Source: a virus
Taxonomy: Duplodnaviria; Heunggongvirae; Uroviricota; Caudoviricetes
Length of the DNA: 8,235 bases
Direction: 5' to 3' (one strand)
Virus record (IMG/VR): IMGVR_UViG_2778261058_000004
Span: 1-8,235 of that record
Shown: piece by piece, positions 1,556 to 8,235 of the stretch
How the letters are laid out: every line of letters starts with the position of its first letter
Numbering within the stretch: position 1 is the first letter of the stretch
Notes under the pieces: generated by a model
Told to the model about the DNA's origin: nothing
Databases searched by the model: none
Seen by the model: the letters and a program-made list of their open reading frames with translations, nothing else
Translations under genes and position numbers: made by a program

Positions 1556-1843
1556 TCAGATAGGGAAGGGAAATTGTCGGCGGGCATGCACAATATTTGC
1601 AATTTCAATGCTTGAAGCTGCTACTCGGTACAAAACGATATAATTAGGGTGAACCACAATTTCCCGCAAACCGGATACTCGATCACTTGGCGGATATAGA
1701 TATGGATGCTCGGAGAGGGCTAAAACAGACGTTTCAATACGTATTTTTAGTCTGCGTGCTGCAGGAATATTTTCCTTAGCAATATAGGCTACGATCTGAC
1801 GCAAATCATCGCGAGCAGATGGTAGCCATAAAATGGGTAACAT
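1556..1843 (-). CDS. parE2: ParE/RelE-superfamily toxin, 95 aa (ParE2-like)
   Basis: Size and sequence pattern typical of ParE toxins (…LYRV…IEIANIVHARR…). Its ATG overlaps the stop of the upstream 63-aa gene. Third gene of a repressor/antitoxin/toxin operon, as in the paaR2-paaA2-parE2 locus of E. coli O157 prophages (from memory). Confidence 0.8.
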   Translation of the reverse strand: MLPILWLPSARDDLRQIVAYIAKENIPAARRLKIRIETSVLALSEHPYLYPPSDRVSGLREIVVHPNYIVLYRVAASSIEIANIVHARRQFPFPI

Positions 1844-2034
1844 TACTCGCTCCTGTTAGTTACAGCAATTTGAGCAATAAGATTTTCTATTTCAGCCATT
1901 ACCTCGTCATGTGGAATTGAGGGACGAGGGTCTGCAAGGCTTGACGCCACTTTAGCGCGCAACCATTCGTTGTAACTGTTTTCTTGTTCGGTAGTTTCGA
2001 ATTCTGAAACTATCGGAGAAAGGGCTGTACTCAT
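1843..2034 (-). CDS. paaA2: Small antitoxin, 63 aa (PaaA2-like, no DNA-binding domain)
   Basis: GAGGAG sits about 6 nt before ATG 2034. Acidic 63-aa product MSTALSPIVSEFETTEQENSYNEWLRAKV… immediately upstream of, and coupled to, the ParE-like toxin. Confidence 0.7.
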   Translation of the reverse strand: MSTALSPIVSEFETTEQENSYNEWLRAKVASSLADPRPSIPHDEVMAEIENLIAQIAVTNRSE

Positions 2035-2061: not shown

Positions 2062-2463
2062 TCACGCCCGGCGGCTTTTTTGTGCCGCCAACCACCGGGC
2101 AATGGTTTCTTCCATTGATTTTTTCTTGTCTTTGATTTCTTGAAGCATTTTTTCTTGGTCTTCCTCTGGAAACGCACTAAAAGCCTGGAGCAGTTCGCGT
2201 TGGCGAGGACCAATTTTCATCGTGTCAGGGGTGAAAATTTGCTCCCCCTCTTCAGGAGGCAATAAAAACCAATGCAATGGATGCCCTGTAACCTCAACCA
2301 GTTTATCCAAACTTGAGGCTTTAGGTGTAGCCTTACCGCTGACCCATTGTTGAACAGTTTGTTGTGTCACACCAATTCTACGGGCCAGCTCAGCCTGGCT
2401 CCATCCAGTTTCCTGAAGAAGCTTGCTGATTCTGTACATAGATACTTCTAGAGCGTTCATCAT
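2062..2463 (-). CDS. paaR2: DicA/PaaR2-like HTH (XRE-family) repressor, 133 aa; likely the prophage cI-equivalent and TA operon regulator
   Basis: N-terminal helix-turn-helix (WSQAELARRIGVTQQTVQQWVSG) and a C-terminal helical segment (RQRELLQAFSAFPEEDQEKM) resembling DicA architecture, with no S24 peptidase domain. Divergent from the cro-like gene. The first ATG has no SD and lies 7 nt after a TAAAAT -10 (possibly leaderless); ATG 2439 is an alternative start. Confidence 0.8.
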   Translation of the reverse strand: MMNALEVSMYRISKLLQETGWSQAELARRIGVTQQTVQQWVSGKATPKASSLDKLVEVTGHPLHWFLLPPEEGEQIFTPDTMKIGPRQRELLQAFSAFPEEDQEKMLQEIKDKKKSMEETIARWLAAQKSRRA

Positions 2464-2572: not shown

Positions 2573-2845
2573 ATGCTAGATAGCACTCGCGAAAAAATTA
2601 GGCAGAAATACACTCAAGCTGAAATAGGTCGTTATATGGGGGTCGCTCAACAGACTGTTTGGCAATGGTTTAGCTTTGGTGTTCCCCCAAAGCAGGTAAT
2701 TCCGTTATGTCAGCTAATGAAGTGGGAAGTTACCCCGCATGAAATTCGCCCTGATATTTATCCTAACCCAACCGACGGGCTGCCTTGTGGAAATAAGTGT
2801 ATGGCGAATGAATCTCTGGCGGTGAACAATGAAAATCACCCCTGA
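2573..2845 (+). CDS. ydaS: Cro/YdaS-like small HTH regulator, 90 aa
   Basis: Strong SD GAGGAGGG at 2561-2568. HTH-like segment (IGRYMGVAQQTVWQWFSFG). Divergent from the repressor and followed by the YdaT-like gene, as in Rac and CP-933P (from memory). Confidence 0.75.
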   Translation: MLDSTREKIRQKYTQAEIGRYMGVAQQTVWQWFSFGVPPKQVIPLCQLMKWEVTPHEIRPDIYPNPTDGLPCGNKCMANESLAVNNENHP

Positions 2846-3350
2846 ACAGGTTCGTGAGGCTCTGGATGCTTGGGTATGCAGACCAGGAATGACACAGGAA
2901 CAGGCGACGATATTAATCACAGAAGCCTTCTGGGCCCTGAAAGAACGCCCGAACATCGATGTTCAACGTGTCACGTTTGATGATGGCGCGGTTGAGCAAC
3001 GGGCGCTTGGCGTTAACCGGGTGAAGATATTCGAACGCTGGAAAGCGATCGACACCAGGGATAAGCGGGAAAAATTCACGGCGTTGATTCCGGCAATCAT
3101 GGAGGCTATCCGGATAAGTGATTTCAGGTTGTATTGTGAAATTACTGATGGAAAAAGCATTACGTACATGCTCGCCGGGTTAAATAAAGAATATGGCGAT
3201 GTGGTGGAGTCCGGTCTGCTTTTGGCAGATCCCGCTGTTGTGGAGCGCGAGACTGACGAGCTTATAGAAAAAGCTATTGCTTTCAAGCATGCGTATCGTC
3301 AGCAATATCAACAAAAAGCCGGATGGAATTATGAGTCTTCTTTTTGCTGA
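2829..3350 (+). CDS. ydaT: YdaT-like protein, 173 aa (CII-equivalent position)
   Basis: Overlaps the cro-like gene by 17 nt. Synteny cro-like / this gene / replication initiator; the KREKFTALIPAIMEAI segment recalls Rac YdaT. Assignment is from memory. Confidence 0.7.
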   Translation: MKITPEQVREALDAWVCRPGMTQEQATILITEAFWALKERPNIDVQRVTFDDGAVEQRALGVNRVKIFERWKAIDTRDKREKFTALIPAIMEAIRISDFRLYCEITDGKSITYMLAGLNKEYGDVVESGLLLADPAVVERETDELIEKAIAFKHAYRQQYQQKAGWNYESSFC

Positions 3351-4296
3351 ACGCCCACTGGTTATTAACACTCAGCTGGCGATGAAAATAGGTCTGAACG
3401 AAGCCATTGTGTTACAGCAGCTGCATTACTGGTTGAGAGATACCGGTTCCGGCATGGAATGTGATGGTGTTCGCTGGATTTATAACACAACAGAACAATG
3501 GCTGGAACAGTTCCCGTTCTGGTCAGAGTCAACGTTAAAACGCGCATTTGCAAGTCTGAAAACGCTGGGGCTTTTGCGTTGCGAAAAGCTCAACAAATCA
3601 AAGCGTGATATGACTAATTTTTACACGATTAATTACGAGAGCGAGCTTTTAGATGGTGGCAAAGTGAGCGAATCCATCAGGTCAAAATGCGCCGCTCCAT
3701 CAGGTCAAAATGACACGATGGAAGAGGCCAAAATGGCACGCTCCATTGGTTCAAAACGACCCAATGTCATCGGGTCAAAATGGCCTGATGATCTTACAGA
3801 GAATACAACAGAGATTACTACAGAGAATAAAAACACTTCTCGTCCGGAAGCTTCGCAACCGGACATGCAGACGGCTGAACAGGATTTTTTAAACCGACAT
3901 CCTGACGCGGTTGTGTTCAGTGCGAAAAAACGCCAGTGGGGCAGCCAGGAAGATTTGGCGTGTGCGCAGTGGATCTGGGGACGAATCGTGAGTCTTTACG
4001 AGCAGGCTGCCAGCGATGATGGCGAAATCATGCGACCGAAAGAACCAAACTGGACTGCATGGGCCAATGATGTGCGCACAATGCGGATGCTGGATGGCAG
4101 AACTCACAGACAAATTTGCGAAATGTTTGGTCGGGCACAGCGGGATCCATTCTGGGTAAAAAACGTCATGAGCCCGTCAAAGCTTCGCGAAAAATGGGAT
4201 GAGCTGGTTATTCGTCTGGGGCGTTCGCCTGTACAGCGTTGTGTAAATCATATTTCTGAACCGGACACCGAAATTCCGCCGGGATTCAGGGGGTAA
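3331..4296 (+). CDS. Replication initiator (lambda O-like / YdaU-like), about 321 aa from ATG 3331
   Basis: Position between the CII-like and DnaC-like genes, and an iteron array plus AT-rich tract inside the coding sequence. The start is uncertain: the track ORF begins at TTG 3277 and ATG 3289 is also in frame; 3331 was chosen for the MSLLFAERPLV N-terminus. Confidence 0.75.
   Translation: MSLLFAERPLVINTQLAMKIGLNEAIVLQQLHYWLRDTGSGMECDGVRWIYNTTEQWLEQFPFWSESTLKRAFASLKTLGLLRCEKLNKSKRDMTNFYTINYESELLDGGKVSESIRSKCAAPSGQNDTMEEAKMARSIGSKRPNVIGSKWPDDLTENTTEITTENKNTSRPEASQPDMQTAEQDFLNRHPDAVVFSAKKRQWGSQEDLACAQWIWGRIVSLYEQAASDDGEIMRPKEPNWTAWANDVRTMRMLDGRTHRQICEMFGRAQRDPFWVKNVMSPSKLREKWDELVIRLGRSPVQRCVNHISEPDTEIPPGFRG
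3673..3835. repeat. Putative origin of replication: 4-5 iterons (consensus near TCCATCAGGTCAAAATG) at 23-bp periodicity, then an AT-rich tract with ACAGAGA(A/T)TA repeats
   Basis: Copies at 3673-3689 and 3696-3712 are identical; degenerate copies at about 3719-3735, 3742-3758 and 3767-3783. The AT-rich segment at about 3790-3835 has three ACAGAGAATA/ACAGAGATTA repeats. Confidence 0.6.
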
Positions 4297-4302
4297 CGAA
4301 GC

Positions 4303-5049
4303 ATGAAAAATATTGCGACAGGCGGTGTTCTTGAACGCATCCGTAAGCTGGCTCCGCAGCATGTAACCGCGCCATACCGAACAGTGGACGAGTGGCGCGA
4401 GTGGCAACTTGCAGAAGGCCAGAAGCGTTGCGAGGAGATCAACCGCCAGAATCGTCAGTTGTGGGTGGAAAAAATTCTGAATCGCTCCGGCATCCAGCCG
4501 TTGCACCGCAAGTGCTCGTTTGCGAATTACCAGGTGCAGAATGACGGCCAGCGATACGCGTTGAGCCAGGCGAAATCCATCGCCGATGAACTGATGTCCG
4601 GATGCACAAATTTCGCATTCAGCGGAAAACCTGGTACCGGGAAAAACCACTTAGCGGCGGCTATCGGGAATCGCCTGCTGAAAGATGGCCAGACAGTGAT
4701 TGTGGTTACCGTGGCTGATGTTATGAGTGCTCTACACGCCAGCTATGACGACGGGCAATCAGGCGAAAAATTTTTGCGGGAACTGTGCGAAGTGGATCTG
4801 CTGGTTCTTGATGAAATTGGCATTCAGCGCGAGACGAAAAACGAGCAGGTGGTACTGCACCAGATTGTTGATCGCCGGACAGCGTCGATGCGCAGCGTGG
4901 GAATGTTGACAAACTTGAACTATGAGGCCATGAAAACGCTGCTCGGCGAGCGGATTATGGATCGCATGACCATGAACGGCGGGCGATGGGTGAGTTTTAA
5001 CTGGGAGAGCTGGCGTTCAAATGTCAGCTATTTGAGGGTTGTTAAGTAA
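4303..5049 (+). CDS. DnaC-like helicase loader (AAA+ ATPase; YdaV-like), 248 aa
   Basis: Walker A FSGKPGTGKNHLAAAIG and Walker B DLLVLDEIG. Similar to E. coli DnaC along the whole length (SGIQPLHRKCSFANY…, MLTNLNYEAMKTLLGERIMDRM…). Confidence 0.9.
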   Translation: MKNIATGGVLERIRKLAPQHVTAPYRTVDEWREWQLAEGQKRCEEINRQNRQLWVEKILNRSGIQPLHRKCSFANYQVQNDGQRYALSQAKSIADELMSGCTNFAFSGKPGTGKNHLAAAIGNRLLKDGQTVIVVTVADVMSALHASYDDGQSGEKFLRELCEVDLLVLDEIGIQRETKNEQVVLHQIVDRRTASMRSVGMLTNLNYEAMKTLLGERIMDRMTMNGGRWVSFNWESWRSNVSYLRVVK

Positions 5050-7516: not shown

Positions 7517-7861
7517 ATGACGACTTTTACCAGAGAGCAGTTAATAGCTCACGCAGAGGAGACGATTGAGGCACAGAGACTGTGCATACCGGGTACAATC
7601 GACCATGACATCATCCGCACATATAAGATGGATATTGCTGTTCTGGAAATTGCACTGGCATCACTGGCAGCGGAGTCAGCCGGTAAATTGCATGAATACA
7701 AACCAGTGGGGTACCAGCGTCTGGTCGACGAGTTAACCATGCTGGTAAAGCAGTTAACCTGGCAACTGAGGAAAGTGAAGCCGGACTGTAAATTGCCGGA
7801 TAAGGCGATGGACTACCTGAAGCGGAACGAACTGATAAGCGCGGAGGATGTTTTGCGATGA
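7517..7861 (+). CDS. Hypothetical phage protein, 114 aa
   Basis: GAAGGGG at 7503-7509 sits 7 nt before ATG 7517. Protein-like, mostly helical-looking composition. Its stop overlaps the start of the next small ORF (ATGA). Confidence 0.6.
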
Positions 7862-7941
7862 CCCGGCCTGAAGCATTCACAACGGTAGGAATTGCGATGG
7901 CGGTGGCGCTGGTGGTGTATTCGATTTGCCGCTGGGGATAA
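7858..7941 (+). CDS. Putative small hydrophobic (single transmembrane) peptide, 27 aa
   Basis: ATG 7858 overlaps the upstream stop (ATGA), with GGAGG at 7843-7847. Product [27 protein letters not shown]. Too short for the 60-aa track. Confidence 0.35.
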
Positions 7942-7948
7942 AAACGGT

Positions 7949-7976
7949 TTGCGGGAAAAGGAGAGTTAAGTAGAAT
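7949..7976 (+). promoter_or_regulatory. Candidate promoter for the hok transcript: -35 TTGCGG, 16-bp spacer, -10 TAGAAT
   Basis: Hexamers read from the sequence. The predicted transcript start near 7984 would give a leader of about 170 nt before hok, the scale expected for hok-family mRNAs. Confidence 0.3.
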
Positions 7977-7990
7977 TGCTGCGGGTGCTT

Positions 7991-8031
7991 GAGGCTATCT
8001 GCCTCAGGCATGAACACCAAAAGGCAGATAG
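7991..8031 (+). promoter_or_regulatory. Structured hok leader: CTATCTGCC (7995-8003) pairs with GGCAGATAG (8023-8031), with nested GAGGC/GCCTC and TGCCT-c-AGGCA hairpins
   Basis: Inverted repeats seen directly. hok-family mRNAs are known for extensive 5' secondary structure that controls translation. Confidence 0.4.
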
Positions 8032-8095
8032 AGAAAAGCCCCAGTTAACATTACGCGTCCGGCAAGACGCTTAACATTAATCTGAGGCATTCTGT

Positions 8096-8155
8096 ATGCG
8101 ACACATAGAGATTAGCCTCTTACGGACCGAAAGGTCAAGGAGAAGCAGGCTATGA
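8096..8155 (+). CDS. Leader mini-ORF (19 codons, MRHIEISLLRTERSRRSRL) ending in ATGA overlap with the hok start; mok-like coupling element
   Basis: GAGG at 8084-8087 sits 8 nt before ATG 8096. Its stop TGA at 8153-8155 overlaps the hok ATG at 8152-8154. Confidence 0.3.
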   Translation: MRHIEISLLRTERSRRSRL

Positions 8156-8235
8156 AGCAGCAAAAGGCGATGTTAATCGTCCTGATCGTCATCTGTTTAA
8201 CCGTCATAGTGACGGCACTGGTAACGAGGAAAGAC
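8152..8235 (+). CDS. hok: Hok/Gef-family type I toxin, N-terminal 28 codons only (hokD/relF-like); continues beyond the window
   Basis: AAGGAG at 8137-8142 sits 9 nt before the ATG. Translation MKQQKAMLIVLIVICLTVIVTALVTRKD matches the transmembrane N-terminus of Hok/RelF proteins as recalled. Confidence 0.85.
   Translation, partial: MKQQKAMLIVLIVICLTVIVTALVTRKD

Follow-up and report, generated by a model that had tools for sequence, protein, structure and literature searches.

Prophage setting, hok gene and mRNA leader

The window analyzed here, 8,235 bp in length, was identified by exact protein look-up as the complete contig NLNZ01000093.1 of draft assembly GCA_002229985.1, and it represents the early region of a lambdoid Escherichia coli prophage. 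A ParE/PaaA2 pair (1556-2034, minus strand) lies next to a cI-like repressor (2062-2463, minus strand); a ParE module had been claimed in the original prediction, and a domain search confirmed it as a real ParE/PaaA2 pair. The genes occupying the cro and cII positions (2573-3350) have Pfam matches to YdaS_toxin and YdaT_toxin in the annotation precomputed for this contig. YdaS and YdaT form a lambdoid-prophage pair for which a toxin-antitoxin role was once proposed. The replication genes, among them one for an IstB/DnaC-like protein (4303-5049), are accompanied by a row of small nin-type ORFs.

The right end of the window carries the first 28 of the 51 codons of a hok toxin gene (8152-8235, plus strand; MKQQKAMLIVLIVICLTVIVTALVTRKD), cut by the contig end and preceded on the same strand by the ribosome-binding site AAGGAG (8137-8142). 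The 28-aa fragment matched Pfam PF01848 HOK_GEF with 30.2 bits (E 3.5e-7; cut-off 22). The gene had been called hok in the original prediction and this identity stands, with the start codon corrected from 8153 to 8152-8154. As the window is the entire contig, the truncation at 8235 is the end of the assembly and no biological boundary; the 3′ third of hok and the fbi element lie outside the window. A scan with window-specific strings, meant to extend the contig, gave no exact match in viral or genome contig collections. A twin contig (L215, GCA_946888795.1), recovered by the exact protein look-up, shares 99.93% identity with the window along 7,097 nt, without a single difference in 7858-8235, and runs on into an intact 51-aa Hok (MKQQKAMLIVLIVICLTVIVTALVTRKDLCEVRIRTGQTEVAVFTAYEPEE) followed by fbi (CCTCAACGCACCC). 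The extension of the gene that had been called for could be made in this twin, and it revealed neither truncation nor frameshift. The full 51-aa protein of the twin matched PHROG 251, "MokW-like host killing", with an E value of 1.5e-32. Directly after hok, the twin carries a hicA/hicB pair (8734-9451); with ParE/PaaA2 and hok, this brings the early region of one prophage to three toxin-antitoxin modules.

Of 5426 complete E. coli genomes, 4694 contain matches to the cassette region, frequently as multiple copies, and the top matches were 99.5% identical and annotated as hokD. Together with the Pfam and Rfam scores, this prevalence puts coincidence out of the question. Up to 9-10 copies of the hok sequence occur per E. 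coli genome. The contig thus ends inside a multi-copy gene, which probably explains the assembly break, and we infer that the break at 8235 most likely represents a repeat collapse within hok.

Upstream of hok, the plus-strand candidate promoter listed in the original prediction was present as described (7949-7976), with TTGCGG at -35 (7949-7954), a 16-nt spacer and TAGAAT at -10 (7971-7976). Loci with otherwise unrelated upstream DNA share the -10 block, AGTTAAGTAGAAT. Transcription would start at 7983, the position at which the match to the Rfam model RF01794 begins. A generic promoter/terminator scan called no site in 7800-8235, at either the hok or the Sok promoter. The hok -35 matches only 3 of 6 positions, which accounts for its being passed over, and because the thresholds of the scan exclude both this weak -35 and the interrupted U-tail of Sok, the null result was not counted against either.

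The hok mRNA leader (7983-8154, 172 nt, plus strand) matched RF01794 over its full length with 106.3 bits (E 4.9e-24; gathering score 59). The model, entitled "sok antitoxin (CssrC)", also matched the hok-sense strand in phage 933W (L001, 1626-1800) and in an R1-type plasmid (L214, 232-403); in 933W this is the strand opposite the annotated sokW (1676-1746, minus strand). Because the match lies on the hok-sense strand and ends on the hok AUG, it supports the hok mRNA leader and not the antisense RNA itself. The elements of the leader, all on the plus strand, are tac (GGGTGCTTGAGG, 7983-7994), a 5′ stem-loop (7984-8042), the predicted target of Sok and, beside the hok ribosome-binding site, a GACC-GAAA-GGTC hairpin (8125-8136). 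The last of these shows a compensatory change between forms of the locus (GACC-GAAA-GGTC versus TGCC-GAAA-GGCA). Nested inverted repeats had been noted in this region, and they are present as repeats I1 and I5.

Folding of the leader together with the 3′ region was predicted for the mRNA of the twin. In the predicted minimum free energy fold of this 390-nt RNA, which extends from the putative start to fbi, nt 1-12 pair with nt 375-387, corresponding to a tac-fbi interaction. When the 3′ 40 nt are removed, nt 5-13 are predicted to fold into a local hairpin, with nt 1-4 still pairing distally. Fold-back inhibition followed by refolding is the established scheme for R1 hok mRNA, and the predicted folds of the twin would conform to it. 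The terminator that usually follows fbi (CCCGCTTCGGCGGGTTTTT in other loci) is replaced at the hicAB junction in the twin, which makes the 3′ end of the hok mRNA uncertain in this lineage.

Predicted Sok antisense RNA and the mok leader ORF

A Sok-like antisense RNA had been expected on the minus strand around 8040-8110. Homology to the annotated sokW, together with a strand-asymmetric fold, predicts an RNA of ~69 nt running from 8102 to ~8034 (8034-8102, minus strand). Its 5′ tail would be single-stranded, with complementarity to the mok AUG and ribosome-binding site, and would be followed by a long stem-loop (8042-8083) and the terminal tail CUUUUCUCU. The fold of this region is stronger on the minus strand (-30.0 kcal/mol, z -5.3) than on the plus strand (-20.1 kcal/mol, z -3.4). 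Both the direct repeat TTAACATTA (8045-8053 and 8071-8079) and the hairpin that it flanks (GCGTC at 8055-8059, loop CGGCAA, GACGC at 8066-8070) were found where they had been reported. What looks like a direct repeat in fact supplies both arms of the Sok stem, which pair via G·U wobbles on the minus strand; these become A·C mismatches on the plus strand, which explains the stronger minus-strand fold. Across 37 distinct sequences this stem is preserved, and 3 of its pairs show compensatory change.

The predicted Sok promoter (8109-8138, minus strand) consists of a -35 element, TTGACC (8138→8133), an 18-nt spacer and a -10 element, TAATCT (8114→8109). It was read from the sequence and placed by the position of the Sok promoter of R1 (TTGCGC-17-TATCCT). 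The R1 sequence containing this element was found at 100% identity in NC_002134 and other plasmids, and the positions of the Sok -10 element are nearly invariant among the distinct leaders. The ends of Sok and both promoters of the locus were placed by homology and should be taken as putative.

The mok leader ORF (8096-8155, plus strand) encodes 19 codons, MRHIEISLLRTERSRRSRL, followed by a stop codon, and coincides in position with the mokW start of 933W. Its ribosome-binding site, GAGG (8084-8087, plus strand), lies 8 nt upstream of the AUG. The original prediction had described a 19-codon ORF whose stop overlaps the hok start, and the TGA at 8153-8155 does overlap the hok ATG (AUGA). Among 107 distinct leaders, the mok AUG and the GAGG are invariant. 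The spacing between the mok and hok start codons is 56 nt here, 57 nt in 933W and one IncFII plasmid and 58 nt in R1/R100; with 57 nt, mok becomes an in-frame 70-codon extension of Hok. In 80 IMG/VR prophage contigs chosen by Hok identity only, the 57-nt in-frame form was found in 66 and the 56-nt, 19-codon form in 11, the leader being absent from 3. Locus counts were computed separately for each IMG/VR sample, as two samples share some contigs. The 56-nt form is therefore a recurrent minority allele, and it is also found in STEC005, DA33137 and SK1144. Translation of hok has been reported to require translation of mok, which is blocked by Sok, in work that also covers 3′ processing of the hok mRNA (PMC4147584). 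The occurrence of mok in all three frames fits the published view that the translation of mok matters and not its peptide.

The bases flanking the mok AUG are hypervariable. The hypervariable patch covers 8089-8095 and 8099-8108, on either side of the invariant AUG, and nearly all other bases are invariant across the 107 distinct leaders. The patch corresponds to the 5′ tail with which Sok is predicted to recognize its target, so that the specificity of each cassette copy may depend on it. The tail alleles differed in 4 of the 5 genomes with two sampled copies, which is about what allele frequencies alone predict and so lends no support to selection for orthogonality beyond chance. Both the hypervariable Sok tail and the free frame of mok (spacing of 56, 57 or 58 nt) may be the result of selection for mutually orthogonal copies in multi-hok genomes.

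Over 7858-8235, the DNA shares 92% identity with the hokW-mokW-sokW locus of 933W/Sp5 (AF125520; PMC8621323) and with that of VT2-Sakai, and mokW, hokW and sokW are annotated in the 933W and Sakai phage loci. HokW of 933W and the present Hok, taken at full length from the twin, share 46 of 51 residues (90%). The promoter, tac, the Sok stem, the position of the mok start and the lambdoid prophage setting are common to both loci. They differ in that mokW is in frame with hokW (57 nt, 70 codons), whereas the 19-codon mok of the present locus, with its 56-nt spacing, ends on the hok AUG. The net difference of 1 nt is made up of 2 nt fewer after the mok AUG and one extra T in AAAGGTCAAGG of the present locus. 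The bases around the mok AUG, that is, the Sok 5′ tail, also differ, and the cassette is located in the nin region here but near the right end of the 933W record. For hokW-sokW, a type I toxin-antitoxin system dependent on RNase III and Hfq has been shown experimentally; the toxicity of HokW, the 90% identical homolog of the present Hok, is neutralized by sokW, and the system aids phage release after induction (PMC8621323).

Closer still are RefSeq hokD (relF) loci of E. coli prophages, annotated "type I toxin-antitoxin system toxin HokD", which are 97-99.5% identical over 8040-8235; the present Hok has Val at residue 10, where these have Ala. The hok/mok/sok locus of plasmids R1 and R100 is more distant. 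It shares the architecture and the Hok fold family, and RF01794 matches the hok-sense strand in both. Also conserved are tac, the mok ribosome-binding site and AUG, AGCCTCTTAC and the block around the hok ribosome-binding site, CAAGGAGAAG. In contrast, R1 Hok is only 42% identical to the present Hok, the R1 Sok stem is unrelated in sequence, and R1 mok starts 58 nt upstream and runs for 70 codons in the third frame (the frame was counted by hand).

Degeneration of the locus was also considered, namely that it is a decayed, non-functional hok relic like several of those in E. coli K-12 and that the truncation is a true loss of the gene. Within the window hok does end after 28 codons, some chromosomal hok loci have been reported to be inactive, without post-segregational killing (bioRxiv 10.1101/2025.08.07.668861), and relBE-hokD loci of the K-12 type, found in 3 of the 80 sampled contigs, lack the whole 5′ leader. 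The present locus differs from that type (compared through 2 leaders) in having both the leader and the Sok region, and its promoter, tac, mok ribosome-binding site and AUG and Sok stem all fit the consensus. The coincidence of the truncation with the end of the contig, the intact ORF and fbi of the twin and the retention of an intact hok in 97 of 98 assessable related loci likewise argue against decay, which we regard as scarcely credible. We therefore read 7949-8235 as the 5′ two-thirds of a standard hok/mok/sok cassette, carried as a moron in the lambdoid nin region, with the 27-aa ORF upstream as a separate element, and assign this reading a probability of about 0.93.

A 27-aa hydrophobic ORF at a cassette-exchange site

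Upstream of the cassette lies a 27-aa ORF (7858-7941, plus strand), the ATG of which overlaps the TGA of a 114-aa gene (7517-7861). The original prediction had presented this ORF as a separate one, coupled to the 114-aa gene, that could encode a second small membrane peptide. The coupling is borne out by the ATG/TGA overlap, and the ORF is probably a real small gene; it does not belong to the hok locus, as other cassettes follow the same ORF elsewhere. The encoded peptide is hydrophobic (GRAVY 0.96), with residues 10-24 forming a core that scores 2.46, and a ribosome-binding-site-like GGAGGA/AGGAGG lies 7-9 nt upstream. The DNA of the ORF was found in 1350 of 5426 complete E. coli genomes, about a quarter. 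The exact peptide has been deposited as KRR59888.1, "bacteriophage protein", and records from a few genomes list it under that name or as "putative prophage protein". The ORF is unannotated by PGAP in the records compared, searches of Pfam and PHROG gave no family for the peptide, and a literature search with the peptide string found no paper. An origin as the detached C terminus of a DUF551 protein was rejected, as the clustered 121- and 185-aa DUF551 proteins end just before the peptide (…PEPPQEVNQ and stop).

The proximity of the ORF to hok, with its end 8 nt before the hok -35, raises the question of a two-peptide module, in which the ORF would encode a second membrane toxin or accessory factor. 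Its hydrophobicity and coding constraint would suit such a role, the homology with 933W begins exactly at its ATG (7858), and a small hydrophobic ORF is found directly upstream of hok in other contexts as well. The distribution of the ORF argues otherwise. Four loci, three from assemblies and one from a gut-metagenome contig, carry this 114-aa gene and 27-aa ORF but continue with a terminator and then either RelE/HTH or ParDE, with no hok, and homology between the window and these RelE- or ParDE-bearing loci stops at 7945. Conversely, many hok cassettes lack the ORF, homology in those cases beginning only at ~7938. Since the ORF lies upstream of the hok promoter, it is absent from the hok mRNA, and it is disrupted in 7 of 110 contigs versus 1 of 98 for hok. 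A joint function with hok is thus very unlikely, and the ORF is better placed outside the cassette.

Two side observations concern the surroundings of the ORF. At 7941-7945, an exchange hot spot is followed, in different genomes, by hok/sok, by a RelE-family toxin with HTH or by HTH with ParDE (L208, L209, L211 and L213 at ~3425-3480; L210 and L212). Elsewhere among prophages, the hok transcription start is preceded, at a distance of 41-89 nt, by the end of some other small hydrophobic ORF: ~30 aa in L025 and L006 (…IYCLAVVLMDHLSD), 49 aa in L035 (…VYCLVVFLMDRLGN) and 72 aa in L005 and L013 (…FMAVMCIEYWR). Most sampled prophage hok cassettes therefore lie directly behind some short membrane-like ORF.

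For analysis of coding constraint, a DNA pattern anchored just outside the 27-aa ORF was used to retrieve 120 IMG/VR contigs, and 50 in-register alleles were pooled from these and from loci fetched earlier. The ORF was intact in 45 of the 50. Across the intact alleles pN/pS was 0.29 in frame, compared with 1.2 and 1.7 in the other same-strand frames, and 5 of 2000 column shuffles reached 0.29, a count that is indicative and no true probability, because the alleles are interrelated. Start codon, length and ATGA overlap persist whichever of three kinds of gene lies upstream, be it the 114-aa gene, a DUF551 gene or L0139 of 933W. These features, together with the ribosome-binding-site-like motif, speak against the view that the ORF is untranslated and conserved as a lambdoid "boundary sequence" for recombination between modules. 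That view draws on mosaic joints within 4 nt of both ends of the ORF, on conservation of its 3′ half even at synonymous sites (pS 0.12 versus 0.26 in the 5′ half) and on the stop or frameshift at codon 3 in the remaining 5 of the 50 alleles, and the missing PGAP annotation and Pfam/PHROG family are in keeping with it. We consider it unlikely, if a serious competitor.

We favor the reading that the 27-aa ORF probably encodes a genuine small membrane protein belonging to the phage backbone, and that its stop codon marks the cassette-exchange site. It would be a separate small phage gene, its product probably membrane-inserted, translationally coupled to the preceding gene. Two wider readings may be added. 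In one, the ORF would encode a translated, uncharacterized lambdoid membrane protein, in every case joined by a stop-start overlap to the gene before it, at a hot spot for swapping toxin-antitoxin modules (hok/sok, RelE-HTH, ParDE). In the other, the variation in Sok tail and mok frame would result from selection for orthogonality. Both are put forward tentatively, at rather less than even odds.

Proposed mode of action and significance

By homology with R1 hok/sok and 933W/Sp5 hokW-sokW, the cassette would operate as follows. The weak promoter (TTGCGG-16-TAGAAT) would yield a stable hok mRNA from ~7983, which at full length would be inert, its 5′ tac pairing with the 3′ fbi that lies just past the contig end and is present in the twin. 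Slow 3′ trimming would then allow the 5′ end to refold and expose the mok ribosome-binding site (GAGG 8084-8087, AUG 8096). Sok, an unstable RNA transcribed on the minus strand (~8102→8034) from its own promoter, which overlaps the hok ribosome-binding site, would base-pair through its 5′ tail with the start region of mok, block translation of mok and leave a duplex to be cut by RNase III. With hok unable to start alone, ribosomes translating mok would have to unfold the RNA near the hok ribosome-binding site, stop at the mok UGA (8153-8155) and reinitiate at the overlapping hok AUG (8152). Once Sok is no longer replenished, whether through prophage loss, transcription shut-off or induction, Hok would be made and would depolarize the inner membrane.

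As a finding, the locus is already known: it is an ordinary, widely annotated prophage cassette, and hok genes have been reported to be enriched in prophages (bioRxiv 10.1101/2025.08.07.668861). The result matters mainly as correct annotation and adds nothing new to hok/sok biology itself. It is mildly new only at its margins, which provide side leads for work on small phage proteins and on the specificity of type I antitoxins: the plasticity of the mok frame, tolerated in all three registers, the hypervariable recognition tail of Sok and the conserved, unannotated 27-aa ORF.
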